Source: Escherichia coli
GTDB lineage: Bacteria > Pseudomonadota > Gammaproteobacteria > Enterobacterales > Enterobacteriaceae
DNA: 64,000 bases
Strand: one strand, 5' to 3'
Assembly: GCF_016026235.1 (NCBI RefSeq)
Contig: NZ_CP065613.1
Shown here: positions 1 through 56,025 of the stretch, piece after piece
Numbering within the stretch: position 1 is the first letter of the stretch
How the letters are laid out: every line of letters begins with the position of its first letter
Made by a program: the position numbers and the translations under genes
Notes under the pieces: generated by a model
Told to the model about the DNA's origin: nothing
The model's input: the letters and a program-made list of their open reading frames with translations, nothing else
The model's database searches: none

Positions 1-881
1 AATAAACCATGGTGATTTCCCGGCAGTACGAGCTTTAGCCGTCACCGATGGTCTGGTTGCTCTTTCCTTCGAGCGTTTAAATCAACGACCTTTAGGCTTA
101 CTTTTATAAAGATAAAAATGCCCTTCATGTTGTGCATTTTTATCTCGACCCAGCAGGCCTTCACCTAAATAAATTGCTGTCGTTGATGCTTTTGTGCCTG
201 AGTCCGACACCTTTTCCCAGCCATTACCAACATTGTAATAATGATTGCCCAGTACCCGGCAAATATAGGTCCAGCCACGGGAGCGGAGCTGTTGGAACCA
301 TCGCCCCTGAAAACCGGCATCTGTAATAACAATGACATCAGTCCCGGGGGAAAAGCACTCAGCAAGCGATTCCAGAAAACGCTCATGTACATCTGCATTC
401 GCTGTCTGTGATGATGGAACGACACAACTCATCAACGGTAAAGAACGCCCGTCACATGCCAGGCTTGCCCGCAAAAGCTGAAAACGAGAGGCATGATAAG
501 CACTCCAGTCAATGAGTATCACAACACGAGACATTCCCCGCGTAATCTTTTGGGTAATTCGCTGAAAAATGGTGGAAACCTCATTTTGCAAATGTCGATT
601 CCCCAACAGTCGATCCACCCGCTTTATTTTGTTTTTAACTGATGCCGTACCGGTTAAATGACGCCCGATACTGGTAAGTGTGAGGGAAGCGCCATTTATT
701 ACAGCATTAGTTGCGTCAATCAGTGATTTTTGACGGTAAAGATGCAAAGGGGCCAGTATGTTGTTAAGGAAATTTTGGCATAATGAACGTGCAGGCATAG
801 TGGTGATCTCCTTGAAATTGTTAGCACAATCAATTAGATCACATCTCACTATGCCTGTCTTGTTTTCTGGGGATTCCTCAG
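1..881 (-). mobile_element. IS10-like (IS4-family) insertion sequence, copy 1, partial (runs off the left edge); outside end CTGAGGAATCCCC at 869-881
   Basis: Encoded protein has IS10-type motifs (KRVDRLLGNRHL, ILIDWS, VITDAGF); terminal sequence resembles the IS10 outside end; bases 7544-8303 are an inverted copy of the same element. Confidence 0.8.
82..798 (-). CDS. IS10-like transposase, 238 codons ending at an in-frame TGA (82-84); the same frame continues transposase-like beyond it
   Basis: ORF track 82..1125 from internal Met (MPARSLCQNF...); identical over 225 aa to the copy at 7627-8303; resemblance to IS10 Tnp is from memory. Confidence 0.75.
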   Translation of the reverse strand: MPARSLCQNFLNNILAPLHLYRQKSLIDATNAVINGASLTLTSIGRHLTGTASVKNKIKRVDRLLGNRHLQNEVSTIFQRITQKITRGMSRVVILIDWSAYHASRFQLLRASLACDGRSLPLMSCVVPSSQTANADVHERFLESLAECFSPGTDVIVITDAGFQGRWFQQLRSRGWTYICRVLGNHYYNVGNGWEKVSDSGTKASTTAIYLGEGLLGRDKNAQHEGHFYLYKSKPKGR

Positions 882-2027
882 GGAAATATCCTGCATTAAC
901 GCAGGCCACGCCCGATACCAGCCAGGGCGTTGCAAAAGCGCCGGAACATGCTGATAACGCTGTAGAATATCCCACAGCAGGCTGCGCTCGACGTTGTGAT
1001 GATAAAGCGCAAACAGATTTTGCGGCTCGCGGTGCTGGCAGGCGCTTATCAGCGTTTGTGCCGCCGCCTGCGCGCCAGTCAGCGCCATATCCATGCCGCG
1101 CACGGAAATTCCGGTATTGACGCAACTGCGCAACGCATCGCCCACCAGCAGCCAGCCGTTACCGGCGTATTGCACCGGCATACTGTGCAAGCCACCTTCT
1201 GGCACCAGATGCGCACCATACTCCAGTGATTCCGTGTTTTTGATAAGCGGGCGCACTGCCGGATGCGCTTTAAAGCGAGTCAGCAGCTCGCTTGCCGGAA
1301 CACGACTTTGCGTAAGGGAAGAGAGCGGGCAAACAATCCCTAACGAGAGCGTTTGTTGATTAGTATAAAGAAATGCGCCGCTGGGTAAGTCATCACAGAT
1401 CCTGCCGCTGAACAGCAACGCTGCGCCTTCGTTATTCTCCAGATGAAAACGTTCTTCAATAGCGGATGTTTCCAGCGACAGCACTTCTTTGATCCCCAAC
1501 GCCATCGCTTCGCCAGCAGGACGAGTCACTAACCCGTGACGTTCAGCCAGGACGCTGTTGGCACCTTCTGCCAGCACCACATAACGGGCGCGGAGAATAT
1601 CGTCACCACAAATGACACCACACACTCTGCCGTTTTCTTCATACAGTGCATCCACCGTCGCACCAGGGATGCATTCGACACCTTCTTTTTCGGCTTCGGC
1701 AACCAGCCACGGATCGAACCGTGCACGTAATACACTCCAGGATTCACCGCCGGGCTGTAAGCTGGAAAACGTCGTTGCGCCATCCGGCGTTAACAGGGAA
1801 AGGCTTTCGTGAGTGATGCGTCGTTCAAGAGGCGCGGTCAGATGAAACTGAGGGAGGAGTTCCGCGAGTGCATGGGTATATAACCGCCCGCCGGAAAGAT
1901 TTTTGCTGCCGGGGATTTCAGCGCGTTCCAGTAACAAAACGGATAAACCCGCTCGCGCGCAGCGTAACGCGCAAGCGGTGCCTGCAATACCGGCACCAAT
2001 AATAATAATGTCGCAGTCGTCTTCCAT
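882..2027 (-). pseudogene. ygcN: ygcN (FixC-like FAD-dependent oxidoreductase), 3' end truncated by the IS insertion at 881
   Basis: N-terminal FAD motif DIIIIGAGIAG; ORF runs into IS sequence about 40 codons short of the ~423 aa I recall for K-12 YgcN; start codon (2027 vs 2057) uncertain. Confidence 0.7.
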
Positions 2028-2104
2028 GTCATGCCCCAGATATCCAGAACACAACACCCTAACATAGCGTTACTTAAGGGAAATTGACCGCCGACACACT
2101 CTTA

Positions 2105-2470
2105 TCATTCGCCGCGATAGATACAACCAGCGGTGCAGGTTTCTTTTACCATCACCGCACTTAACAGCGGCACAACGGGTTTAACCTGATCCCAAATCCA
2201 TTTTGCTAAAACTTCGCTGGTCGGGTTTTCCAGGCCTGGAATATCATTGAGATAATGGTGATCGAGGCGCTCATAAGTTGGCTTAAACGCTGCTTTCAGT
2301 TCAGCGAAATCGATAATCCAGCCCGTATGCGGATCGACTTCCCCGGTAATTTCCAGTCGCACCATAAAGGAATGCCCGTGCAGGCGACCACATTTATGCC
2401 CTTCCGGGACGTGTGGTAAGCGGTGAGCGGCTTCGAAGGTGAAATCTTTAAATAACGTGGTGGACATCAT
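2105..2470 (-). CDS. queD: 6-carboxy-5,6,7,8-tetrahydropterin synthase QueD
   Basis: 121-aa product [35 protein letters not shown]...; divergent from cysJ as in E. coli. Confidence 0.9.
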
Positions 2471-2785
2471 AATTTCTCTACAGGACGATAAAACCGCCGT
2501 AGAGTACCGGAAAGGCTGTTTTTTCGCATTATCTAAAACGACTTTGTTGCGCAAAATCGCTGATTTATCTTAATGATTGGCTAAATTCATTTGTTTTTCA
2601 TTAGGTTGGTTAATCTATTTTGTTGTTAAAGACTATTGCTAAAACAGGTTAGTCGATTTGGTTATTAGTTATCGCTATCCCGTCTTTAATCCACACCGTT
2701 CACCCCGTTAACCTTACCTTCTCTTCTGTTTTATGGGCGCTGACAGGGCGCAGAAACAGCTTTGCTTACTGGAACATAACGACGC

Positions 2786-4585
2786 ATGACGACACAGGTC
2801 CCACCTTCCGCGTTGCTTCCGTTGAACCCGGAGCAACTGGCACGCCTTCAGGCGGCCACGACCGATTTAACTCCCACCCAGCTTGCCTGGGTTTCTGGCT
2901 ATTTCTGGGGCGTGCTCAATCAGCAGCCTGCTGCGCTTGCAGCAACGCCAGCGCCAGCCGCAGAAATGCCGGGTATAACTATTATCTCCGCCTCGCAAAC
3001 CGGCAATGCGCGCCGGGTTGCTGAAGCATTACGTGATGATTTATTAGCGGCAAAACTGAACGTTAAGCTGGTGAACGCGGGCGACTATAAATTCAAACAA
3101 ATCGCCAGCGAAAAACTGCTTATCGTGGTGACGTCAACGCAAGGAGAAGGGGAACCGCCGGAAGAAGCCGTCGCGCTGCATAAGTTCCTGTTCTCCAAAA
3201 AAGCGCCGAAGCTGCAAAACACCGCATTTGCCGTGTTTAGCCTCGGCGATAGCTCTTATGAATTTTTCTGCCAGTCCGGGAAAGATTTTGACAGCAAGCT
3301 GGCGGAACTGGGCGGTGAACGCCTGCTCGACCGTGTCGATGCCGACGTTGAATACCAGACCGCTGCCAGCGAGTGGCGCGCTCGCGTGGTTGATGCGCTT
3401 AAATCGCGTGCGCCTGTCGCGGCACCTTCGCAATCCGTCGCTACTGGCGCGGTAAATGAAATCCACACCAGCCCGTACAGCAAAGACTCGCCGCTGGTGG
3501 CGAGCCTCTCTGTTAACCAGAAAATTACCGGGCGTAACTCTGAAAAAGACGTTCGCCATATCGAAATTGACTTAGGTGACTCGGGCCTGCGTTACCAGCC
3601 GGGTGACGCGCTGGGCGTCTGGTATCAGAACGATCCGGCACTGGTGAAAGAACTTGTCGAACTGCTGTGGCTGAAAGGCGATGAACCTGTCACCGTCGAG
3701 GGCAAAACGTTGCCTCTGAACGAAGCGCTACAGTGGCACTTCGAACTGACCGTCAACACCGCCAATATTGTTGAGAACTATGCCACGCTTACCCGCAGCG
3801 AAACGCTGTTGCCGCTGGTGGGCGATAAAGCGAAGTTACAGCATTACGCCGCGACTACGCCGATTGTCGATATGGTGCGCTTCTCTCCGGCGCAACTGGA
3901 CGCCGAAGCGCTGATTAATCTGCTGCGCCCGCTGACGCCGCGTCTCTATTCCATCGCCTCCTCGCAGGCGGAAGTCGAGAACGAAGTACACGTCACCGTT
4001 GGTGTGGTGCGTTACGACGTGGAAGGCCGCGCCCGTGCCGGTGGTGCCTCCAGCTTCCTCGCGGACCGCGTGGAAGAAGAGGGCGAAGTTCGCGTATTTA
4101 TCGAACATAACGATAACTTCCGCCTGCCCGCTAACCCGGAAACCCCGGTGATTATGATTGGCCCAGGCACCGGCATCGCGCCGTTCCGCGCCTTTATGCA
4201 GCAGCGCGCCGCTGACGAAGCGCCGGGTAAAAACTGGCTGTTCTTTGGCAACCCGCATTTTACGGAAGATTTCCTCTACCAGGTGGAGTGGCAGCGCTAC
4301 GTCAAAGAGGGCGTGCTGACACGTATCGATCTCGCCTGGTCGCGCGATCAAAAAGAAAAAGTTTACGTACAAGACAAACTGCGCGAACAGGGCGCGGAGC
4401 TGTGGCGCTGGATCAATGACGGTGCCCACATTTATGTCTGCGGCGACGCTAATCGCATGGCGAAAGACGTTGAGCAGGCACTTCTGGAAGTGATTGCCGA
4501 ATTTGGTGGCATGGACACCGAAGCGGCGGATGAATTTTTAAGTGAGCTGCGCGTAGAGCGCCGTTATCAGCGAGATGTCTACTAA
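2786..4585 (+). CDS. cysJ: Sulfite reductase [NADPH] flavoprotein alpha subunit
   Basis: 599-aa ORF, flavodoxin plus FAD/NADPH reductase domains, first gene of cysJIH. Confidence 0.95.
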
Positions 4586-6297
4586 TGAGCGAAAAACATC
4601 CAGGGCCTTTAGTGGTCGAAGGAAAACTGACAGACGCCGAGCGCATGAAGCTTGAAAGCAACTACCTGCGCGGCACCATTGCGGAAGATTTAAACGACGG
4701 TCTGACCGGCGGCTTTAAGGGCGACAACTTCCTGCTGATCCGCTTCCACGGCATGTATCAGCAGGATGACCGCGACATCCGCGCCGAACGTGCTGAACAG
4801 AAGCTGGAGCCGCGCCACGCGATGCTGTTGCGCTGCCGTCTGCCGGGTGGGGTGATTACCACTAAACAGTGGCAGGCGATCGACAAATTTGCCGGTGAAA
4901 ACACCATCTATGGCAGCATTCGCCTGACCAACCGCCAGACGTTTCAGTTCCACGGCATTCTGAAAAAGAACGTCAAACCGGTGCACCAGATGCTGCACTC
5001 GGTCGGTCTTGATGCGCTGGCGACCGCTAACGACATGAACCGTAACGTACTCTGCACCTCGAACCCTTACGAGTCGCAGCTACACGCGGAAGCGTATGAA
5101 TGGGCGAAGAAAATCTCTGAACATCTGCTGCCGCGTACCCGCGCGTATGCGGAGATCTGGCTCGATCAGGAAAAAGTCGCCACCACCGATGAAGAACCGA
5201 TCCTCGGCCAGACCTACCTGCCGCGTAAATTCAAAACCACGGTAGTGATCCCGCCACAGAACGATATCGATCTGCACGCCAACGACATGAACTTCGTGGC
5301 AATCGCCGAAAACGGCAAGCTGGTGGGCTTTAACCTGCTGGTGGGCGGTGGGCTTTCCATCGAACACGGCAACAAGAAAACCTACGCCCGCACCGCGAGT
5401 GAGTTTGGCTATCTGCCGCTGGAGCATACGCTGGCAGTGGCGGAAGCCGTCGTGACAACTCAGCGTGACTGGGGTAACCGAACCGATCGTAAAAATGCCA
5501 AAACCAAATACACGCTGGAGCGCGTGGGGGTTGAGACGTTTAAAGCGGAAGTGGAGCGTCGCGCGGGGATCAAATTCGAGCCGATTCGCCCGTATGAGTT
5601 TACCGGACGCGGAGATCGTATTGGCTGGGTTAAGGGCATTGATGATAACTGGCACCTGACGCTGTTTATCGAAAATGGTCGCATCCTTGATTATCCGGGG
5701 CGTCCGCTGAAAACCGGCCTGCTGGAGATCGCGAAGATCCACAAAGGCGATTTCCGCATTACGGCGAACCAGAATCTGATCATCGCCGGTGTGCCGGAAA
5801 GCGAGAAAGCGAAGATCGAGAAGATCGCTAAAGAGAGCGGGTTAATGAATGCCGTCACGCCGCAGCGTGAAAACTCAATGGCCTGCGTGTCATTCCCGAC
5901 TTGCCCGCTGGCGATGGCGGAAGCGGAGCGTTTCCTGCCGTCTTTTATCGACAACATCGATAATTTAATGGCGAAACATGGTGTCAGCGATGAGCATATC
6001 GTGATGCGTGTAACAGGCTGCCCGAACGGTTGTGGTCGCGCGATGCTGGCGGAAGTGGGCCTGGTGGGTAAAGCGCCGGGTCGCTACAACCTGCATCTTG
6101 GCGGCAACCGTATTGGGACACGTATCCCACGGATGTATAAAGAAAACATCACCGAGCCGGAAATCCTGGCGTCGCTTGATGAACTGATAGGGCGCTGGGC
6201 GAAAGAGCGCGAAGCGGGTGAAGGCTTCGGCGACTTTACGGTGCGTGCGGGCATCATTCGCCCGGTGCTCGATCCGGCGCGCGATTTGTGGGATTAA
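4585..6297 (+). CDS. cysI: Sulfite reductase [NADPH] hemoprotein beta subunit
   Basis: 570-aa ORF, start overlaps cysJ stop (ATGA). Confidence 0.95.
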
Positions 6298-6313
6298 CCA
6301 TCAGCCCGGTCTT

Positions 6314-6350
6314 GTAGGCCTGATAAGACGCGTGAGCGTCGCATCAGGCA
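6314..6350. repeat. REP-like palindromic unit in the cysI-cysH spacer
   Basis: GTAGGCCTGATAAGACGCG...GCGTCGCATCAGGCA inverted repeat. Confidence 0.6.
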
Positions 6351-6370
6351 AGGCAAACAGTGAGGAATCT

Positions 6371-7105
6371 ATGTCCAAACTCGATCTAAACGCCCTGAAC
6401 GAACTGCCGAAGGTAGATCGCATTCTGGCGCTGGCGGAAACTAACGCCCAACTGGAAAAACTGGACGCTGAAGGCCGCGTAGCTTGGGCGCTGGATAATC
6501 TGCCCGGTGAATATGTACTTTCTTCCAGCTTTGGCATTCAGGCGGCGGTGAGCCTGCATCTGGTGAATCAAATTCGCCCGGATATTCCGGTGATCCTCAC
6601 CGATACCGGTTACTTGTTCCCGGAAACCTACCGCTTTATTGACGAGTTAACGGACAAACTCAAGCTCAACCTGAAAGTGTACCGTGCTACCGAAAGCGCA
6701 GCCTGGCAGGAAGCACGCTACGGAAAACTGTGGGAACAGGGCGTTGAAGGCATTGAAAAGTACAATGACATCAACAAAGTCGAACCGATGAACCGGGCGC
6801 TGAAAGAACTTAACGCGCAAACGTGGTTTGCTGGCCTGCGCCGTGAACAATCCGGCAGCCGCGCCAATTTACCGGTGCTGGCAATTCAGCGTGGCGTATT
6901 TAAAGTGCTGCCGATTATCGACTGGGATAACCGAACGATATATCAGTATCTGCAAAAGCATGGCCTGAAATATCACCCATTATGGGACGAAGGATATTTA
7001 TCGGTGGGCGATACCCATACAACCCGTAAATGGGAACCCGGCATGGCGGAAGAAGAAACGCGTTTCTTTGGCTTAAAAAGGGAATGTGGGTTACACGAAG
7101 GGTAA
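6371..7105 (+). CDS. cysH: Phosphoadenosine phosphosulfate (PAPS) reductase
   Basis: 244-aa product [31 protein letters not shown]...; the ORF track extends upstream, start chosen at MSKLD. Confidence 0.93.
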
Positions 7106-7122
7106 ATATTGCCGGATAAATT

Positions 7123-7160
7123 AAACGCCTCTGTCAGAAATGATGGGGGCGTTTTTATTT
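7123..7160 (+). terminator. Putative rho-independent terminator of cysJIH
   Basis: AAACGCCTC...GGGGGCGTTT stem followed by TTTTATTTT immediately after the cysH stop. Confidence 0.45.
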
Positions 7161-7368
7161 TGCGAGCAGCATTCCTGATTTTAAACGTGAACGCCGCTGG
7201 AAGAATTATCAGGTATAGAATGGCGTCGGGTGCTTGAGGCTGTCTGGCGTTAAGCATTCGCGAGGTTCCAGATGGACAAAAGCCCCAGGCGATATTTCTA
7301 TCAACCTGAGGCTCGCGTTCGAACGTAGCAATTCGAATGTTAGTCTCTTCTTTGCAGGGAGGCAAGAC

Positions 7369-7521
7369 ATGCTGACAAAATATGCCCTTGTGGCAATCAT
7401 AGTGCTGTGTTTTACAGTACTGGGATTCACGCTGATGGTAGGCGACTCGTTGTGTGAGTTGAGTATCAGAGAACGTGGTATGGAGTTTAAGGCTGTTCTC
7501 GCTTACGAATCGAAGAAGTAG
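7369..7521 (+). CDS. hokX: Hok/Gef-family type I toxin (50 aa) with an in-frame upstream Mok-like extension back to 7234; position matches the hokX/sokX locus next to cysH
   Basis: [50 protein letters not shown] carries the Hok motifs SLCE..IR and AYES; SD GGGAGG 7-14 nt upstream; gene name by position, from memory. Confidence 0.7.
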
Positions 7522-7543
7522 CCACCACGCGGGGGTAAAACCC

Positions 7544-8303
7544 CTGAGGAATCCCCAGAAAACAAGACAGGCATAGTGAGATGTGATCTAATTGATTGTG
7601 CTAACAATTTCAAGGAGATCACCACTATGCCTGCACGTTCATTATGCCAAAATTTCCTTAACAATATACTGGCCCCTTTGCATCTTTACCGTCAAAAATC
7701 ACTGATTGACGCAACTAATGCTGTAATAAATGGCGCTTCCCTCACACTTACCAGTATCGGGCGTCATTTAACCGGTACGGCATCAGTTAAAAACAAAATA
7801 AAGCGGGTGGATCGACTGTTGGGGAATCGACATTTGCAAAATGAGGTTTCCACCATTTTTCAGCGAATTACCCAAAAGATTACGCGGGGAATGTCTCGTG
7901 TTGTGATACTCATTGACTGGAGTGCTTATCATGCCTCTCGTTTTCAGCTTTTGCGGGCAAGCCTGGCATGTGACGGGCGTTCTTTACCGTTGATGAGTTG
8001 TGTCGTTCCATCATCACAGACAGCGAATGCAGATGTACATGAGCGTTTTCTGGAATCGCTTGCTGAGTGCTTTTCCCCCGGGACTGATGTCATTGTTATT
8101 ACAGATGCCGGTTTTCAGGGGCGATGGTTCCAACAGCTCCGCTCCCGTGGCTGGACCTATATTTGCCGGGTACTGGGCAATCATTATTACAATGTTGGTA
8201 ATGGCTGGGAAAAGGTGTCGGACTCAGGCACAAAAGCATCAACGACAGCAATTTATTTAGGTGAAGGCCTGCTGGGTCGAGATAAAAATGCACAACATGA
8301 AGG
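7544..8303 (+). mobile_element. IS10-like insertion sequence, copy 2, truncated (outside end plus 5' part of transposase), interrupted by IS4
   Basis: Begins CTGAGGAATCCCC 22 bp after the hok stop; inverted duplicate of 1-881; ends where the IS4 left end begins. Confidence 0.8.
7627..8303 (+). pseudogene. IS10-like transposase truncated after codon 225 by the IS4 insertion (the ORF reads 9 more codons into IS4)
   Basis: Identical to the 82-798 product up to ...DKNAQHEG, then diverges into the IS4 left end. Confidence 0.8.
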
Positions 8304-9729
8304 TAATGCCGATCAGTTAAGGATCAGTTGACCGATCCAGTGGCTGTGTAAGAATCCGGAAACGCTCACTTGTTTCCGGATTTTTTTATGCACATTGGAC
8401 AGGCTCTTGATCTGGTATCCCGTTACGATTCTCTGCGTAACCCACTGACTTCTCTGGGGGATTACCTCGACCCCGAACTCATCTCTCGTTGCCTTGCCGA
8501 ATCAGGTACTGTAACGCTACGCAAGCGCCGTCTTCCCCTCGAAATGATGGTCTGGTGTATTGTTGGCATGGCGCTTGAGCGTAAAGAACCTCTTCACCAG
8601 ATTGTGAATCGCCTGGACATCATGCTGCCGGGCAATCGCCCCTTCGTTGCCCCCAGTGCCGTTATTCAGGCCCGCCAGCGCCTGGGAAGTGAGGCTGTCC
8701 GCCGCGTGTTCACGAAAACAGCGCAGCTCTGGCATAACGCCACGCCGCATCCGCACTGGTGCGGCCTGACCCTGCTGGCCATCGATGGTGTGTTCTGGCG
8801 CACACCGGATACACCAGAGAACGATGCAGCCTTCCCCCGCCAGACACATGCCGGGAACCCGGCGCTCTACCCGCAGGTCAAAATGGTCTGCCAGATGGAA
8901 CTGACCAGCCATCTGCTGACGGCTGCAGCCTTCGGCACGATGAAGAACAGCGAAAATGAGCTTGCTGAGCAACTTATAGAACAAACCGGCGATAACACTC
9001 TGACGTTAATGGATAAAGGTTATTACTCACTGGGACTGTTAAATGCCTGGAGCCTGGCGGGAGAACACCGCCACTGGATGATACCTCTCAGAAAGGGAGC
9101 GCAATATGAAGAGCTCAGAAAACTGGGTAAAGGCGATCATCTGGTGAAGCTGAAAACCAGCCCGCAGGCACGAAAAAAGTGGCCGGGACTGGGAAATGAA
9201 GTGACAGCCCGCCTGCTGACCGTGACGCGCAAAGGAAAAGTCTGCCATCTGCTGACGTCGATGACGGACGCCATGCGCTTCCCCGGAGGAGAAATGGCGG
9301 ATCTGTACAGTCATCGCTGGGAAATCGAACTGGGATACAGGGAGATAAAACAGACGATGCAACTGAGCAGGCTGACGCTGAGAAGTAAAAAGCCGGAGCT
9401 TGTGGAGCAAGAGCTGTGGGGTGTCTTACTGGCTTATAATCTGGTGAGATATCAGATGATTAAAATGGCGGAACATCTGAAAGGTTACTGGCCGAATCAA
9501 CTGAGTTTCTCAGAATCATGCGGAATGGTGATGAGAATGCTGATGACATTGCAGGGCGCTTCACCGGGACGTATACCGGAGCTGATGCGCGATCTTGCAA
9601 GTATGGGACAACTTGTGAAATTACCGACGAGAAGGGGAAGGGCCTTCCCGAGAGTGGTAAAGGAGAGGCCCTGGAAATACCCCACAGCCCCGAAAAAGAG
9701 CCAGTCAGTTGCTTAACTGACTGGCATTA
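8304..9729 (+). mobile_element. IS4, complete 1426-bp element with imperfect terminal inverted repeats (TAATGCCGATCAGTTAAGG ... CTTAACTGACTGGCATTA)
   Basis: Length, terminal repeats and encoded InsG match IS4; flanks (ACAACATGAAGG left, CGACATTTGCCG right) are not a direct repeat. Confidence 0.9.
8388..9716 (+). CDS. insG: IS4 transposase InsG (442 aa)
   Basis: [36 protein letters not shown]... near-identical to E. coli IS4 transposase as remembered. Confidence 0.92.
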
Positions 9730-9764
9730 CGACATTTGCCGGGGTTATGAGCATAACGTAATGC

Positions 9765-11282
9765 TTATTTCACCGGACGCATCGCCGGGAACAGAATAAC
9801 ATCGCGGATGGTATGGCTGTTGGTGAACAGCATTACCATACGGTCGATACCAATCCCCAGACCTGCTGTCGGCGGTAAGCCATGTTCCAGTGCGGTAACG
9901 TAATCTTCATCGTAGAACATCGCTTCGTCGTCACCTGCGTCTTTCGCGGCAACCTGATCCAGGAAGCGTTGCGCCTGATCTTCCGCGTCATTCAGCTCGC
10001 TAAAGCCGTTACCGATTTCACGACCACCGATGAAGAACTCAAAGCGGTCTGTGATTTCCGGGTTAATGTCGTTACGACGCGCCAGCGGAGAAACTTCTGC
10101 CGGATATTCAGTAATAAAGGTCGGCTGAATCAGATGTGCTTCTGCCACTTCTTCGAAGATCTCGGTAACGATACGGCCCAGACCCCAGCTCTTCTCAACG
10201 TGGATACCGATAGATTCAGCAATCGCTTTCGCAGAGTCGAAGTTATCCAGATCCGCCATGTCGGTTTCTGGGCGATATTTCTTGATCGCTTCACGCATGG
10301 TCAGTTTTTCGAACGGTTTACCGAAGTCCAGCGTCACGTCGCCGTAGGTCACTTCCGTCTTACCGAGAATATCCTGTGCCAGAGTACGGAACAGCGATTC
10401 GGTCAGCTCGATCAGATCTTTGTAATCTGCGTAAGCCATGTAGAGTTCCATCATGGTGAACTCTGGGTTATGACGTACGGAGATACCTTCGTTACGGAAG
10501 TTACGGTTGATTTCGAATACACGCTCGAAGCCACCGACCACCAGACGCTTGAGGTACAGTTCCGGCGCGATACGCAGGTACATGTCGAGATCCAGCGCGT
10601 TATGGTGGGTGATAAACGGACGCGCAGCGGCACCGCCAGGGATCACCTGCATCATCGGCGTTTCAACTTCCATAAAGCCGCGGTTCACCATGAACTGGCG
10701 AATACCAGAGAGGATCTGCGAGCGTACTTTAAAGGTGTTACGGGATTCATCGTTAGAGATGAGATCCAAATAACGCTGACGATAGCGCGCTTCCTGATCC
10801 TGCAAGCCGTGGAATTTATCCGGCAGCGGACGCAGTGCTTTGGTCAGCAGACGCAGCTCGGTACAGTGGATAGACAGTTCGCCGGTTTTGGTTTTGAACA
10901 GTTTACCTTTCGCGCCGAGGATGTCGCCGAGGTCCCATTTTTTGAACTGCTCGTTGTAAACGCCTTCCGGCAGATCGTCACGGGCAACGTACAGCTGAAT
11001 GCGGCCCCCCACATCCTGCAGGGTAACGAAAGACGCTTTACCCATAATACGACGGGTCATCATGCGGCCAGCAACGGCGACTTCGATGTTCAGCGCTTCC
11101 AGTTCTTCGTTCTCTTTACCGTCGAATTCTGCGTGCAATTGGTCAGAGGTATGATCGCGACGGAAATCGTTCGGGAAGGCAATCCCCTGCTCGCGCAGGT
11201 TCACCAGCTTCTCACGACGCGTTTTCAGTTCATTGTTAAGATCGACTACCGCGTCAGCGCCCTGTGCGTGTTGTTCAGACAT
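9765..11282 (-). CDS. lysS: Lysyl-tRNA synthetase, constitutive
   Basis: 505-aa class II aaRS; directly downstream of prfB. Confidence 0.95.
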
Positions 11283-11291
11283 GTTGGTTCC

Positions 11292-12390
11292 TCATAACCC
11301 TGCTTTCAAACTTGCTTCGATAAATTGATCCAGGCTGCCGTCCAGCACGGCCTGCGTGTTGCGGGTTTCTACCCCGGTACGCAGATCTTTAATGCGGGAG
11401 TCATCAAGGACATAAGAACGAATCTGGCTGCCCCAGCCGATGTCAGATTTGTTATCTTCCATCGCCTGTTTCTCAGCATTTTTCTTCTGCATCTCCAGTT
11501 CATAAAGCTTCGCTTTCATCTGCTTCATGGCCTGGTCTTTGTTCTTGTGCTGGGAACGGTCGTTCTGGCACTGGGTCACGATCCCGGTCGGGATGTGGGT
11601 AATACGCACCGCAGATTCGGTACGGTTAACGTGCTGACCGCCCGCGCCGGACGCGCGATAAACGTCAATGCGCAGATCCGCCGGGTTGATTTCGATATCA
11701 ATATCATCATCAACTTCCGGATAAACAAACGCGGAGCTGAACGACGTGTGGCGACGACCGCCGGAGTCAAACGGGCTTTTACGCACCAGGCGGTGAACGC
11801 CGGTTTCTGTACGCAGCCAGCCGTAAGCGTAATCGCCGGAGATTTTGATAGTCACGGATTTAATACCCGCCACTTCACCTTCCGACTCTTCGATGATTTC
11901 AGTTTTGAAACCACGCGATTCTGCCCAGCGCAGATACATACGCTCAAGCATGCTCGCCCAGTCCTGTGCTTCCGTACCGCCAGACCCCGCCTGAATATCG
12001 AGGTAGCAGTCGGCGCTGTCATATTCGCCAGAGAACATACGGCGGAACTCAAGCTGCGCCAGTTTTTCTTCCAGGGCGTCGAGTTCAGCAACGGCTTCGT
12101 TAAAGGTTTCTTCGTCGTCAGCTTCTACAGCCAGTTCCAGCAGACCAGAAACATCTTCCAGCCCCTGTTTCATTTGGTCGAGGGTGTCGACAACGGCTTC
12201 GAGGGAGGAACGCTCTTTACCCAGCGCCTGTGCGCGTTCGGGTTCGTTCCAGACATCCGGCTGTTCCAGCTCGGCGTTTACTTCTTCCAGACGCTCTTTC
12301 TTGGCGTCGTAGTCAAAGATACCCCCTAAGAACGTCGGAGCGTTCCGTGAGGTCCTGAATGCGATTATTTACCGGATTAATTTCAAACAT
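11292..12390 (-). CDS. prfB: Peptide chain release factor 2, made by programmed +1 frameshift (codons 1-25 at 12390..12316, skip 12315, resume 12314..11292)
   Basis: [10 protein letters not shown]... N-terminus; in-frame UGA after CUU preceded by AGGGGG (minus-strand CTT AGG GGG TAT CTT TGA C); downstream frame encodes the GGQ-containing body. Confidence 0.92.
12313..12332 (-). other. prfB +1 frameshift site: SD-like AGGGGG, slippery CUU, in-frame UGA
   Basis: Minus strand reads cttagggggtatctttgac. Confidence 0.9.
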
Positions 12391-12480
12391 GGTCTGATTT
12401 CTTTTATTGAGCTAGTCAAAATGCGGTGATAAGAGCGGGATTGTACCCAATCCACGCTCTTTTTTATAGAGAAGATGACG

Positions 12481-14214
12481 CTAAATTGGCCAGATATTGT
12501 CGATGATAATTTGCAGGCTGCGGTTGCCGCGAAACTCGTTGATATCGAGCTTGTAAGCCAGTTGCACTTCGCGCACGCCGTTATCCGGCCAGAGGGCGGT
12601 ATCGACATTAAAAGCAATACCATCCAGCAGTGGACCGCCGCCGACCGGTTCGACCATCACCTTCAAATGACGTTCGCCCACCAGCCGCTGTTGCAGCAGA
12701 CGGAAATGACCGTCAAACAGCGGCTCCGGGAACATCTGCCCCCACGGGCCAGCATCGCGCAGCAGCTGCGCCACTTCCATGGTCATTTCGGCTGGACTTA
12801 ACGGACCGTCTGACACCACTTCGCCTTGCAATAGCGAAGGGTCCAGCCACTCAGTAACCAGTTCGCCAAACCGTTGTTGAAAGAGTTCGAATTTATCCTC
12901 TTCCAGCGACAAACCCGCCGCCATCGCATGACCGCCAAACTTCAGCATCATGCCAGGGTAGAGTGTGTCTAATCGCTCCAGTGCATCACGCATATGCAGC
13001 CCCTGAATGGAGCGACCTGAACCTTTCAGTGTACCATCACCTGCTGGCGCAAAGGCGATAACCGGACGGTGAAAACGCTCTTTGATGCGCGAAGCCAGAA
13101 TACCGACAACGCCCTGATGCCATTCGGGGTGATACATTGCCAGCCCGCCGGGTAGCGAGTCGCGGCTGCGCTCCAGTTTCTCGCACAGGGTCAGGGCTTC
13201 AACTTGCATTCCTTGTTCGATCTCTTTTCGCGTCTGGTTTAGCGCATCGAGTTCATTTGCCAGCACGCGCGCTTCGCCGATGTTGTCGCACAGCAACAGC
13301 GCCACACCGACGGACATATCGTCCAGTCGTCCGGCAGCATTGAGACGTGGCCCCAGCGCAAAACCTAAATCGCTGGCGGCGAGTTTTTGTGCATCACGGT
13401 TTGCCACTTCAAGCAGCGCTTTAATCCCCGGACGGCACTTTCCGGCTCGGATGCGACTCATCCCCTGCCAGGTCAGAATGCGATTATTAGCGTCCAGCGG
13501 CACGACGTCCGCCACTGTCCCCAGCGCGACCAGATCCAGCAGTTCTGCCAGGTTAGGAATTGCGATGTTACGCTCATCAAACCAGCCCTGATCGCGCAAA
13601 AAGGTGCGCAGCGCCAGCATCAGATAAAACGCCACACCCACGCCTGCCAGTGATTTCGACGGGAAATTACAGTCGCGCAAGTTAGGGTTAATGATCGCTT
13701 CCGCTGCGGGTAATGTGTCGCCTGGCAAATGGTGATCGGTAACAATAACCGGGATGCCCAACGAGCGAGCGTGCTCAACCCCCGCATGGGAGGAAATACC
13801 GTTATCCACCGTGACAATTAACTGCGCGCCACGGGCATGGGCCTGATCGACCACTTCCGGGCTTAAGCCGTAACCGTCTTCGAAACGGTTTGGTACCAGG
13901 TAGTCGATATTGCTGCAACCAAGCGAGCGCATCGCCAGCACGCTTAGAGCCGTGCTGGTCGCACCGTCGGCGTCGAAATCACCGACCACAATAATCCGCG
14001 TTCCTTCGCGAAAAGCGTTGTAAAGGATCTCAACGGCCTTTTCGACGCCGCTCAGTTGCTGCCAGGGCAACATACCTTTAACACTGCGTTCCAGTTCTTG
14101 CGCACTGCGTACTCCCCGGCTGGCGTATAAACGGCGCAGCAAGGGAGGCAATTCAGCGGGCAAGTCTGCCGTTTCATCGACTTCACGGCGACGAAGTTGT
14201 ATCTGTTGTTTCAC
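12481..14214 (-). CDS. recJ: Single-stranded-DNA-specific 5'-3' exonuclease RecJ
   Basis: 577-aa DHH/DHHA1 phosphoesterase in conserved recJ-dsbC-xerD context. Confidence 0.95.
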   Translation of the reverse strand: MKQQIQLRRREVDETADLPAELPPLLRRLYASRGVRSAQELERSVKGMLPWQQLSGVEKAVEILYNAFREGTRIIVVGDFDADGATSTALSVLAMRSLGCSNIDYLVPNRFEDGYGLSPEVVDQAHARGAQLIVTVDNGISSHAGVEHARSLGIPVIVTDHHLPGDTLPAAEAIINPNLRDCNFPSKSLAGVGVAFYLMLALRTFLRDQGWFDERNIAIPNLAELLDLVALGTVADVVPLDANNRILTWQGMSRIRAGKCRPGIKALLEVANRDAQKLAASDLGFALGPRLNAAGRLDDMSVGVALLLCDNIGEARVLANELDALNQTRKEIEQGMQVEALTLCEKLERSRDSLPGGLAMYHPEWHQGVVGILASRIKERFHRPVIAFAPAGDGTLKGSGRSIQGLHMRDALERLDTLYPGMMLKFGGHAMAAGLSLEEDKFELFQQRFGELVTEWLDPSLLQGEVVSDGPLSPAEMTMEVAQLLRDAGPWGQMFPEPLFDGHFRLLQQRLVGERHLKVMVEPVGGGPLLDGIAFNVDTALWPDNGVREVQLAYKLDINEFRGNRSLQIIIDNIWPI

Positions 14215-31069: not shown

Positions 31070-31253
31070 ATTTCTCTGAGATGTTCGCAAGCGGGCCAGT
31101 CCCCTGAGCCGATATTTCATACCACAAGAATGTGGCGCTCCGCGGTTGGTGAGCATGCTCGGTCCGTCCGAGAAGCCTTAAAACTGCGACGACACATTCA
31201 CCTTGAACCAAGGGTTCAAGGGTTACAGCCTGCGGCGGCATCTCGGAGATTCC
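31070..31253 (+). ncRNA. ssrS: 6S RNA (RNA polymerase sigma-70 regulatory RNA)
   Basis: Begins ATTTCTCTGAGATGTTCGCAAGCGGGCCAGTCCCCTGAGCCG and ends ...GGCGGCATCTCGGAGATTCC, matching E. coli 6S RNA from memory; ends +/- 3 nt. Confidence 0.88.
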
Positions 31254-31876: not shown

Positions 31877-31937
31877 GGGCGATACACCTGCATCGCGCTG
31901 ATTGACATCGTTGATTCTTTAACCTAATTTAGTGAGT

Positions 31938-32082
31938 AAGGGTAAGGGAGGATTGCTCCTCCCCTGTGACTGACTGTTAATAAGCTGGGAAACTTATGAG
32001 TAACAGTACAATCAGTATGATGGCAAGTCGCATCATAACCCTTCTCCTTCAAGCCCTCGCTTCGGTGAGGGCTTTACCGTTA
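31938..32082 (+). ncRNA. sibC: Sib antisense RNA (type I antitoxin), copy 1; ends approximate
   Basis: Promoter TTGACA-17bp-TAATTT at 31902-31930; fully overlaps the ibs ORF on the opposite strand; hairpin AAGCCCTCGCTTCGGTGAGGGCTTT at 32051-32075. Confidence 0.5.
31977..32036 (-). CDS. ibsC: Ibs-family type I toxin, 19 aa (MMRLAIILIVLLLISFPAY)
   Basis: Reverse complement of 31977-32036 translates to an Ibs peptide; SD GGAGAAGGG upstream on the minus strand. Confidence 0.75.
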   Translation of the reverse strand: MMRLAIILIVLLLISFPAY

Positions 32083-32329
32083 CAGCCCCATGCTGCCCAG
32101 TTATCGTAAGCTCTCTTTAAATAACCGCAACGCATTGATCTACCTTTAAATCTTTTCTTCGAGCGCGCTCGAAAAACCCCATGCAAAACAGAGATAATTT
32201 TTGGGAAAAAGGATCTATTACGGCAGTAAACGTGGGCGATGAAGTGGCTATCAAAAAGTTCGGTTCAGGGCGATGCACCCCGCATCGCCCTGATTGACAT
32301 CGTTGATTCTTTGACCTAATTTAGTGAGT

Positions 32330-32474
32330 AAGGGTAAGGGAGGATGACTCCTCCCCTGAGACTGACTGTTAATAAGCTCCGAAACTTATCAGTAACAGTA
32401 CAATCAGTATGATGACAAGTCGCATCATAACCCTTCTCCTTTAAGCCCTCGCTTCGGTGAGGGCTTTACCGTTA
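32330..32474 (+). ncRNA. Sib antisense RNA, copy 2; ends approximate
   Basis: Same promoter and hairpin as copy 1, shifted 392 bp. Confidence 0.5.
32369..32428 (-). CDS. Ibs-family type I toxin, 19 aa (MMRLVIILIVLLLISFGAY), second copy
   Basis: Reverse complement of 32369-32428; differs from copy 1 at two residues. Confidence 0.75.
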   Translation of the reverse strand: MMRLVIILIVLLLISFGAY

Positions 32475-36283: not shown

Positions 36284-38428
36284 ATGTCTAACGTGCAGGA
36301 GTGGCAACAGCTTGCCAACAAGGAATTGAGCCGTCGGGAGAAAACTGTCGACTCGCTGGTTCAGCAAACCGCGGAAGGGATCACCATCAAGCCGCTGTAT
36401 ACCGAAGCCGATCTCGATAATCTGGAGGTGACAGGTACCCTTCCTGGTTTGCCGCCCTACGTTCGTGGCCCGCGTGCCACTATGTATACCGCCCAACCGT
36501 GGACCATCCGTCAGTATGCTGGTTTTTCAACAGCAAAAGAGTCCAACGCTTTTTATCGCCGTAACCTGGCCGCCGGGCAAAAAGGTCTTTCCGTTGCGTT
36601 TGACCTTGCCACCCACCGAGGCTACGACTCCGATAACCCGCGCGTGGCGGGCGACGTCGGCAAAGCGGGCGTCGCTATCGACACCGTGGAAGATATGAAA
36701 GTCCTGTTCGACCAGATCCCGCTGGATAAAATGTCGGTTTCGATGACCATGAATGGCGCAGTGCTACCAGTACTGGCGTTTTATATCGTCGCCGCAGAAG
36801 AGCAAGGTGTTACACCTGATAAACTGACCGGCACCATTCAGAACGATATCCTCAAAGAGTACCTCTGCCGCAACACCTATATTTACCCGCCAAAACCGTC
36901 AATGCGCATTATCGCCGACATCATCGCCTGGTGTTCCGGCAACATGCCGCGATTTAATACCATCAGTATCAGCGGTTACCACATGGGTGAAGCGGGTGCC
37001 AACTGCGTGCAGCAGGTAGCATTTACGCTCGCTGATGGGATTGAGTACATCAAAGCAGCAATCTCTGCCGGACTGAAAATTGATGACTTCGCTCCTCGCC
37101 TGTCGTTCTTCTTCGGCATCGGCATGGATCTGTTTATGAACGTCGCCATGTTGCGTGCGGCACGTTATTTATGGAGCGAAGCGGTCAGTGGATTTGGCGC
37201 ACAGGACCCGAAATCACTGGCGCTGCGTACCCACTGCCAGACCTCAGGCTGGAGCCTGACTGAACAGGATCCGTATAACAACGTTATCCGCACCACCATT
37301 GAAGCGCTGGCTGCGACGCTGGGCGGTACTCAGTCACTGCATACCAACGCCTTTGACGAAGCGCTTGGTTTGCCTACCGATTTCTCAGCACGCATTGCCC
37401 GCAACACCCAGATCATCATCCAGGAAGAATCAGAACTCTGCCGCACCGTCGATCCACTGGCCGGATCCTATTACATTGAGTCGCTGACCGATCAAATCGT
37501 CAAACAAGCCAGAGCTATTATCCAACAGATCGACGAAGCCGGTGGCATGGCGAAAGCGATCGAAGCAGGTCTGCCAAAACGAATGATCGAAGAGGCCTCA
37601 GCGCGCGAACAGTCGCTGATCGACCAGGGCAAGCGTGTCATCGTTGGTGTCAACAAGTACAAACTGGATCACGAAGACGAAACCGATGTACTTGAGATCG
37701 ACAACGTGATGGTGCGTAACGAGCAAATTGCTTCGCTGGAACGCATTCGCGCCACCCGTGATGATGCCGCCGTAACCGCCGCGTTGAACGCCCTGACTCA
37801 CGCCGCACAGCATAACGAAAACCTGCTGGCTGCCGCTGTTAATGCCGCTCGCGTTCGCGCCACCCTGGGTGAAATTTCCGATGCGCTGGAAGTCGCTTTC
37901 GACCGTTATCTGGTGCCAAGCCAGTGTGTTACCGGCGTGATTGCGCAAAGCTATCATCAGTCTGAGAAATCGGCCTCCGAGTTCGATGCCATTGTTGCGC
38001 AAACGGAGCAGTTCCTTGCCGACAATGGTCGTCGCCCGCGCATTCTGATCGCTAAGATGGGCCAGGATGGACACGATCGCGGCGCGAAAGTGATCGCCAG
38101 CGCCTATTCCGATCTCGGTTTCGACGTAGATTTAAGCCCGATGTTCTCTACACCTGAAGAGATCGCCCGCCTGGCCGTAGAAAACGACGTTCACGTAGTG
38201 GGCGCATCCTCACTGGCTGCCGGTCATAAAACGCTGATCCCGGAACTGGTCGAAGCGCTGAAAAAATGGGGACGCGAAGATATCTGCGTGGTCGCGGGTG
38301 GCGTCATTCCGCCGCAGGATTACGCCTTCCTGCAAGAGCGCGGCGTGGCGGCGATTTATGGTCCAGGTACACCTATGCTCGACAGTGTGCGCGACGTACT
38401 GAATCTGATAAGCCAGCATCATGATTAA
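36284..38428 (+). CDS. scpA: Methylmalonyl-CoA mutase ScpA (Sbm), B12-dependent
   Basis: 714 aa from [20 protein letters not shown]... Confidence 0.93.
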
Positions 38429-39416
38429 TGAAGCCACGCTGGCAGAAAGTATTCGCCGCTTACGTCAGGGTGAGCGTGCCACACTCGCCCAGGCCATGAC
38501 GCTGGTGGAAAGCCGTCACCCGCGTCATCAGGCACTAAGTACGCAGCTGCTTGATGCCATTATGCCGTACTGCGGTAACACCCTGCGACTGGGCGTTACC
38601 GGCACCCCCGGCGCGGGGAAAAGTACCTTTCTTGAGGCCTTTGGCATGTTGTTGATTCGAGAGGGATTAAAGGTCGCGGTTATTGCGGTCAATCCCAGCA
38701 GCCCGGTCACTGGCGGTAGCATTCTCGGGGATAAAACCCGCATGAATGACCTGGCGCGTGCCGAAGCGGCGTTTATTCGCCCGGTACCATCCTCCGGTCA
38801 TCTGGGCGGTGCCAGTCAGCGAGCGCGGGAATTAATGCTGTTATGCGAAGCAGCGGGTTATGACGTAGTGATTGTCGAAACGGTTGGCGTCGGGCAGTCG
38901 GAAACAGAAGTCGCCCGCATGGTGGACTGTTTTATCTCGTTGCAAATTGCCGGTGGCGGCGATGATCTGCAGGGCATTAAAAAAGGGCTGATGGAAGTGG
39001 CTGATCTGATCGTTATCAACAAAGACGATGGCGATAACCATACCAATGTCGCCATTGCCCGGCATATGTACGAGAGTGCCCTGCATATTCTGCGACGTAA
39101 ATACGACGAATGGCAGCCACGGGTTCTGACTTGTAGCGCACTGGAAAAACGTGGAATCGATGAGATCTGGCACGCCATCATCGACTTCAAAACCGCGCTA
39201 ACTGCCAGTGGTCGTTTACAACAAGTGCGGCAACAACAATCGGTGGAATGGCTGCGTAAGCAGACCGAAGAAGAAGTACTGAATCACCTGTTCGCGAATG
39301 AAGATTTCGATCGCTATTACCGCCAGACGCTTTTAGCGGTCAAAAACAATACGCTCTCACCGCGCACCGGCCTGCGGCAGCTCAGTGAATTTATCCAGAC
39401 GCAATATTTTGATTAA
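38421..39416 (+). CDS. argK: GTPase ArgK/MeaB (methylmalonyl-CoA mutase chaperone)
   Basis: 331 aa, P-loop GTPGAGKST. Confidence 0.92.
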
Positions 39417-45436: not shown

Positions 45437-45535
45437 GCCGGATGCGGCGTGAACGCCTTATCCGGCCTACAAAAACCTGCAAATTCAATATATTGCAGGA
45501 TACGTGTAGGCCTGATAAGCGTAGCGCATCAGGCA
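45437..45535. repeat. BIME: two REP units flanking a central palindrome
   Basis: GCCGGATGCGGCGTGAACGCCTTATCCGGCCTAC ... CCTGCAAATTCAATATATTGCAGG ... GTAGGCCTGATAAGCGTAGCGCATCAGGCA. Confidence 0.8.
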
Positions 45536-54751: not shown

Positions 54752-56025
54752 TGCGCGGCCTCCCCGATATCAACGCCAAATTGTGCCAGCAGATATTTCT
54801 CGGCCTGTTCATTCCAGATGCCGTGCGTTTCCTCAACCAGCCGCGCCAACTCTTTAAACAGCGGATCGGTTTTGCCTTTTTCGGCAAAATCGGCAATGGC
54901 AGTGAGCGGCATGGTCACGCCGTTATAAATGAGTTTTTTACCGCCAGGGATATCCGGCAGATTGAGCACGGTATCTGGCACCGCATCCAGCCCACCGATA
55001 TGCGTGACCATAAAGGACGGCTGCAACTGCCCCGTGGCGCTTAACGCAATCGCCTCTTTCATGTCGTCCGTTGAACCGCCGGATGTACCGACTACGTGCG
55101 TGCTGTTGTAATGGACGTTGTAGAAATTAAACGGCACTTTGAAGTTTTTATCCGTCGGCCCGGCAAAGAAGTTCAGACAGCCATCTTCCGCCAGTAATTC
55201 GTCAGCCATCTCAACGACAGCAGGCACCGCCGCATAAACAAAAATGTCATCGAACCCGACATCTCCTGTCAGCGCCCGCAGCGTCTGGACCGGATCGCTC
55301 ATCCCTTTGGTATTCACATACACCAGCTCAATGCCTTTACTGGCCGCCAGATCCACCGGCAGCAGCTTCTGCACCTGCGCCAGGCGTTTGTCGTCGATAT
55401 CGACCACCACCACCCGTGACGGTTGTATGCCACCGTTAATGGCGTAATCGATAGCGCCAATGCCCATCGGACCCGCACACGCCAGCAGTGCAATATTGCC
55501 GCCAGGTTTGACGCCCATGCGATGCTCATAAACATATTGCGTGGTGTGATAATTGGCATGATAAGCACCAATAATGCAGCACATAGGCTCTGCCAGCGAC
55601 GCCGCAGCAAAATAAGAGCCGTGATACGGTAATACGCAGCCCAAATTAATGGCGATTTCGGGAATAATCATATAGGTGGCGTTACCGCCAAAATATTCGT
55701 AGCTGTAGCCCGCTGAATATCCGCTTGGTAACCCCATCGCCGGTTGCAATACAAAACGCTGGCCTTTTTTATATTTGCCAGTGAGATTTTTACCCACTTC
55801 GACAATAACCCCAGCACATTCATGCCCGGTAATGACCGGATGATTTTCTAAATCGTCGGGTACGCGTTTATGTTCACTACCGAGTAACGCCGCTTTCCAG
55901 GTGGATAAACAGACGCTGTCAGAAATCACACTCACCAGTAATTCATTATCGGTAATTTCTGGCAGTTCAAATTCGCGCAGACGGACATCCCGCTTGCCAT
56001 AAATAGCAGCAACTTTGGTTTTCAT
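54748..56025 (-). CDS. yggP: Zn-dependent sorbitol-dehydrogenase-like oxidoreductase YggP
   Basis: 425 aa, MDR family. Confidence 0.88.
   Translation of the reverse strand: MKTKVAAIYGKRDVRLREFELPEITDNELLVSVISDSVCLSTWKAALLGSEHKRVPDDLENHPVITGHECAGVIVEVGKNLTGKYKKGQRFVLQPAMGLPSGYSAGYSYEYFGGNATYMIIPEIAINLGCVLPYHGSYFAAASLAEPMCCIIGAYHANYHTTQYVYEHRMGVKPGGNIALLACAGPMGIGAIDYAINGGIQPSRVVVVDIDDKRLAQVQKLLPVDLAASKGIELVYVNTKGMSDPVQTLRALTGDVGFDDIFVYAAVPAVVEMADELLAEDGCLNFFAGPTDKNFKVPFNFYNVHYNSTHVVGTSGGSTDDMKEAIALSATGQLQPSFMVTHIGGLDAVPDTVLNLPDIPGGKKLIYNGVTMPLTAIADFAEKGKTDPLFKELARLVEETHGIWNEQAEKYLLAQFGVDIGEAAQ

Follow-up and report, generated by a model that had tools for sequence, protein, structure and literature searches.

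The canonical programmed +1 ribosomal frameshift site of prfB in an Escherichia coli genome

The DNA analysed here (the window) is a stretch of 64,000 nucleotides of the Escherichia coli contig NZ_CP065613.1, numbered from its first letter, in which xerD, dsbC, recJ, prfB, and lysS follow one another in the order found in E. coli, with recJ upstream of prfB, and with prfB and lysS forming a pair in which lysS comes second. The parts of prfB, codon 246 of the same gene, and lysS lie at the following positions, given with the basis of each placement:

12388-12390, minus strand: prfB start codon ATG in frame 0, the first start after the upstream stop in that frame
12313-12390, minus strand: ORF0, 25 sense codons and the in-frame UGA as codon 26 (translation, ORF list)
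12327-12322, minus strand: internal Shine-Dalgarno-like AGGGGG, 3 nt 5' of CUU and 6 nt 5' of UGA
12321-12319, minus strand: spacer or E-site codon UAU, Tyr24 (sequence)
12315-12318, minus strand: slippery CUUU, consisting of CUU (Leu25, 12318-12316) and the U of UGA (sequence)
12315-12313, minus strand: in-frame stop UGA (sequence)
12312, minus strand: 3' C of UGA-C (sequence)
12312-12315, minus strand: UGA-C, a weak RF2-specific stop signal, within which the post-shift GAC (12314-12312) encodes Asp26 (sequence)
11292-12314, minus strand: +1-frame ORF, 340 sense codons (RF2 residues 26-365) and the terminal UGA stop at 11294-11292 (translation)
about 11654-11652, minus strand: prfB codon 246, Ala (comparison with K-12)
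9765-11282, minus strand: lysS, lysine-tRNA ligase (NF009101, 1106.6 bits), 9 nt after the prfB stop

The ATG at 12390-12388 coincides with the CDS start in the RefSeq record of the identical gene of strain FDAARGOS_943, and translation from it opens MFEINPVNN and runs through 25 sense codons to UGA as codon 26, exactly the depth of 25 codons given in the initial annotation of this stretch; a stop at this UGA yields a peptide of 25 amino acids. On the gene strand the site reads CUU AGG GGG UAU CUU UGA C from 5' to 3', such that the AGGGGG, the CUU, the in-frame UGA, and the following C, all of which that annotation had described as intact, were recovered on the minus strand. Its interval of 12313-12332 held every other element and missed the 3' C at 12312 by one base; the location was correct, with the strand left unstated. 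The 16-mer AGGGGGTATCTTTGAC had a single occurrence in the 64-kb window, even with 2 mismatches allowed (0.01 expected from shuffles), and the looser pattern AGGGGG...CTTTGA was also unique to the prfB site within the window, where CTTTGAC alone occurred 13 times. The site combines a slippery CUU, a 3' C, and an AGGGGG placed exactly 3 nt 5' of the CUU. It agrees at all positions with the published consensus of AGGGGG, 3 nt, CTTT, GA, and C, a motif reported from 8,164 of 12,753 genomes (64%) (PMC12421855).

Neither frame encodes the full protein by itself. Frame 0 contains 26 stops within its first 366 codons, so the continuous single-frame prfB ORF that would have spoken against frameshifting is absent. 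In the +1 frame, the upstream stop is a TAA at 12371-12369, and from there no ATG, GTG, or TTG occurs until the first ATG at 12173. Beginning with the GAC at 12314, this frame stays open over 340 codons and ends in the TGA at 11294-11292; the lack of a start codon before 12173 makes independent initiation of full-length RF2 impossible. The claim that RF2 synthesis here requires a frameshift is thus borne out by the map of stops and starts, as is the observation that a six-frame track splits the gene, in this case into a 25-aa ORF (12313-12390) and a 293-aa ORF beginning at the ATG at 12173. Joining the two frames at Leu25/Asp26 gave a protein of 365 amino acids that matched the NCBIfam model TIGR00020 (prfB) with 525.9 bits against a cut-off of 370, the match extending over residues 12-362 and therefore spanning the junction. 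RF1 models scored 304-306 bits on the same protein, under their own cut-offs of 400-423, and SPF, the tripeptide for recognition of the stop codon, and GGQ, the motif for peptidyl hydrolysis, were found at residues 205 and 250, respectively. The joined two-frame product is accordingly RF2, a class I peptide chain release factor. RefSeq WP_001701073.1, from strain FDAARGOS_943, has the same sequence; in the record of that strain prfB is annotated as a CDS in two pieces, noted as a "programmed frameshift", and the K-12 gene is annotated likewise.

The frameshift in prfB was described in 1985-86, and the E. coli K-12 site was reportedly the subject of Craigen and Caskey's 1986 work. The alignment to E. 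coli prfB that had been proposed as a check was run against K-12, revealing 110 bp of nucleotide identity that extends from the start codon through UGA-C and beyond, with UGA as codon 26 in both genes and the operon context of recJ-prfB-lysS, including the 9-nt distance to lysS, shared as well. The two genes differ at 6 nt in 1099 nt, none of them inside the 110 bp around the site, and the two proteins differ at residue 246 only, which is Ala in the window and Thr in K-12. A further difference is the 3' flank of lysS, which is rearranged in the window strain. Ala246 RF2 is the canonical and more active allele, with Thr246 being a K-12 peculiarity that confers weaker termination (PMC5373646). 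The window strain therefore carries the canonical RF2 allele, which also indicates that the source strain is no K-12 derivative.

Across complete E. coli genomes, identity over the 110 bp around the site was 99% or more in 5418 of 5425. The 1231-bp stretch that contains prfB matches FDAARGOS_943 at 100% identity and had a counterpart in 5425 of the 5426 complete E. coli genomes, of which only 3501, versus 5418 for the 110-bp site, were identical to it at 99% or above. One assembly, E. coli BH100 substr. MG2014 (NZ_CP024650.2, 1303-2400), carried prfB as one continuous CDS of 1098 nt, in which one G is missing from the G5 run, giving ...RGIFDYD..., a state unique among the 5425 genomes. This is what a continuous prfB looks like, and the prfB of the window is unlike it. 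We considered the BH100 MG2014 gene as a natural loss of autoregulation and rejected that reading, given that it is a singleton that a homopolymer sequencing error fits equally well; its in-frame prfB is either such an error or a private mutation and has no bearing on the window.

To place the site within bacteria as a whole, species-representative genomes were scanned for AGGGGGTNNCTTTGAC, which returned at least 120 loci; all figures that follow refer to the 120 matches listed, and, the scan being selected by motif, they describe where the motif is placed and not how prevalent it is among genomes. An RF2 homologue with 26-89% identity to E. coli RF2 followed AGGGGGTNNCTTTGAC in the +1 frame in 102 of the 120 matches listed, and in 100 of these 102 prfB loci the junction fell at the position of E. 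coli residue 26. In the prfB loci among the matches listed, a candidate start in frame 0 was located 20-29 codons upstream of the junction, mostly 24-25. The spacer codon in the same 102 loci was most often TAT (62), followed by TCT (22) and TAC (11), making the UAU of the window the commonest variant of the bacterial prfB motif family among the matches listed. The hosts included Gammaproteobacteria, Bacillota, Bacteroidota, Cyanobacteria, Chlorobiota, and Omnitrophota. Among the 18 of the 120 listed matches without a prfB, 4 ended at locus edges, and the others look like chance, as expected for 14 specified bases in ~3x10^11 bases. Judged by this placement, the AGGGGGTNNCTTTGAC motif sits non-randomly at the prfB junction.

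UGA is read by RF2 alone, a 3' C makes it a poor stop, and AGGGGG is complementary to the 3'-UCCUCC-5' tail of E. coli, with one G-U pair. Ribosomes would begin at the ATG at 12390, read 25 codons, and arrive with CUU in the P site and UGA-C in the A site. Were RF2 plentiful, termination at codon 26 would follow, with release of the 25-aa peptide, whereas with RF2 scarce the ribosome would pause at UGA-C, AGGGGG would pair with the anti-Shine-Dalgarno tail of the 16S rRNA, and the peptidyl-tRNA-Leu would slip from CUU to the overlapping UUU. GAC (Asp26) would then be read in the +1 frame, with 340 codons in total translated in that frame to complete the 365-aa RF2. Experiments published on K-12, whose site has the same sequence, are the basis from which we infer the slip, its efficiency, the Shine-Dalgarno/anti-Shine-Dalgarno pairing, and the competition with RF2. 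Neither an rRNA gene nor the tRNA-Leu partner was found within the 64-kb window. An independent function of the 25-aa termination peptide is only remotely conceivable. The same elements, their autoregulatory role, and slippage of tRNA-Leu from CUU onto UUU, stimulated by the Shine-Dalgarno element, have been described (PMC12421855), and ribosome profiling at the native locus measured frameshifting of ~28% with K-12 RF2, ~21% with Ala246 (B-type) RF2, and ~47% without RF3 (PMC5373646).

Additional stimulation of the shift by an RNA hairpin that starts 3 nt 3' of the site was considered because the 60 nt downstream fold with -17.3 kcal/mol (z = -2.35), a stability equalled by only 4 of 200 shuffles. 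Over the 102 prfB loci among the matches listed, however, the 60-nt segment had a mean z of -0.02, no lower than the -0.26 of an in-gene control, and only 3 of the 102 could form all five E. coli stem pairs at matching columns. Downstream structure is also not invoked in the literature on the prfB site (PMC12421855). We thus rejected the candidate hairpin as modestly non-random here but with a stem that is not conserved over the 102 listed prfB loci, and a stimulatory role for it seems very improbable. A structure in ORF0 that would sequester the Shine-Dalgarno-like element was likewise rejected (fold z = +0.38, no signal). The Rfam scan of the whole window found no family over the prfB site, as expected for an element that is a linear motif without the fold of a structured RNA.

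Full-length RF2 might also arise without a ribosomal slip, by transcriptional slippage on G5 or T3, by readthrough of the UGA, or by termination and a new start in the +1 frame; the short homopolymers GGGGG and TTT at the site lend this some plausibility. Readthrough would be met by the 26 stops that frame 0 holds within 366 codons, and reinitiation at 12173, the first start after the 12371-12369 stop, would lose residues 1-72, such that the positions of stops and starts exclude both. As for transcriptional slippage, runs of 5 G and 3 T are shorter than those at which RNA polymerase slips efficiently. Published work on the identical sequence, moreover, describes a ribosomal event that depends on the level of RF2 or RF3 (PMC5373646, PMC12421855). 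We consider any of these routes to be extremely improbable and prefer the ribosomal +1 shift.

That prfB is a pseudogene, or was split by a frameshift mutation or a sequencing error, is how a mechanical reading into ORFs of 25 and 293 aa could be taken, and the initial annotation had warned of this mistake; the idea can be set aside for practical purposes, as the same 'defect' recurs in nearly every complete E. coli genome (5418 of 5425 at 99% identity or more) and at the same residue in the prfB of many phyla, the break sits inside a full conserved cassette with a chance expectation of 0.01, the frame downstream runs uninterrupted over 340 codons and retains its catalytic motifs, RF2 is the sole factor that reads UGA, and the sole assembly with a continuous ORF, BH100 substr. 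MG2014, is a singleton with a deletion in G5. We are as good as certain that this is the site at which E. coli prfB undergoes its canonical, autoregulatory +1 programmed ribosomal frameshift, and nothing in the sequence speaks to the contrary.

Other recoding systems share parts of this arrangement. In eukaryotic antizyme and in yeast Ty1/Ty3, EST3, and ABP140, a slow A-site codon permits the +1 shift, as it does in prfB, and antizyme resembles prfB further in being autoregulatory and sensing the product of its pathway. The antizyme and yeast shifts are, however, not homologous to that of prfB: their slippery and stimulatory elements differ and operate without Shine-Dalgarno/anti-Shine-Dalgarno pairing, and they sense polyamines or rare tRNAs, whereas prfB senses a release factor. 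IS1 insAB' and dnaX are cases of programmed recoding in E. coli itself, with dnaX also having an internal Shine-Dalgarno-like stimulator, but both shift in the -1 direction on A-rich heptamers with downstream structure and without sensing of a stop codon.

Upstream of the gene, a consensus scan of 11200-12700 returned no convincing sigma-70 promoter in the 90-bp spacer between recJ and prfB and one promoter-like match inside prfB, at chance frequency. The spacer, which extends from the recJ stop (12481) to the prfB ATG (12390), contains a stable hairpin at 12432-12461 (minus strand), with 13 bp (AGAGCG-U-GGAUUG / CAAUCC-CGCUCU), and the 90 nt fold with -22.1 kcal/mol (z = -3.4). An A-run lies 5' of the hairpin on the gene strand, and a T-run lies 3' of it on the plus strand only, where the scan called the hairpin terminator-like. 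It might serve in termination or attenuation of recJ, as an antisense terminator, or in mRNA stabilisation.

The 3' flank of lysS is occupied by an intact IS4-family transposase ORF of 448 aa at 8370-9716 (plus strand), ending ~35 bp past the lysS stop (9765). Collinearity with FDAARGOS_943 begins only at 9730, from which it follows that the junction lacks idi, which normally lies next to lysS in convergent orientation, and the IS4-family element may have altered the prfB-lysS operon at its native 3' end or removed that end. Given Ala246 RF2, which terminates better at UGA, and this element, there is a slim chance that the set-point of frameshifting or the fate of the prfB-lysS transcript differs from that of K-12. 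Beyond the element, the segment at 881-8303 contains ygcN-queD-cysJ-cysI-cysH, a hok/sok locus, and an ISEc60-like element. This segment is 100% identical to FDAARGOS_943, where it lies ~140 kb from prfB, indicating that an IS-associated rearrangement put it beside lysS in the window. The ISEc60-like transposase ORF (7576-8331) has 251 aa, versus ~396 aa in the reference (1191-nt CDS), and it appears that the IS4-family insertion truncated it. Part of the 881-8303 query matched 40 places in the FDAARGOS_943 record, which points to an IS-rich background, possibly one like that of Shigella. In the same segment, a sok antitoxin RNA at 7228-7384 (plus strand; Rfam, 106.7 bits) overlaps a Hok/Gef-type toxin ORF at 7234-7521, and the pair is predicted from these matches to be a chromosomal hok/sok type I toxin-antitoxin locus just downstream of cysH.

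Several further features were observed elsewhere in the window. The 6S RNA (ssrS) at 31070-31253 (plus strand) is followed by tandem SIB antitoxin RNAs at 31902-32052 and 32294-32444 (plus strand), two copies ~91% identical over 267 bp that correspond in the reference annotation to ibsC and a second Ibs-family toxin locus. An ES036 (CssrF) sRNA was found at 45471-45513 (plus strand; Rfam, 47.3 bits, gathering score 37.6). The gene meaB/argK at 38421-39416 (plus strand) is an intact ORF of 331 aa in the window and a 'frameshifted' pseudogene in the otherwise near-identical reference genome, the two differing around 38717-38794; the reference lesion is a true frameshift, in contrast to the programmed one of prfB. 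At ~55112-55120, the window lacks IS1A, an element with a -1 programmed frameshift of its own, a copy of which disrupts a zinc-binding dehydrogenase / sorbose-1-phosphate reductase gene of FDAARGOS_943. The alignment blocks overlap there by 9 bp, which looks like a target-site duplication, and together with the absence of IS1A this suggests that the dehydrogenase/reductase gene may be intact in the window.

The prfB site was already known, is of textbook standing, and is annotated as such in RefSeq, and one more intact copy is nothing new; its motif was surveyed in >12,000 genomes in 2025 (PMC12421855). For annotation, its importance is that naive ORF callers split prfB, leaving an essential and intact gene open to a false pseudogene flag, and for sequence quality the site serves as a check, with the single-base register at its G5 and T3 runs being correct in this assembly. 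Biologically, the prfB of this strain presents a textbook case of recoding and of translational autoregulation.
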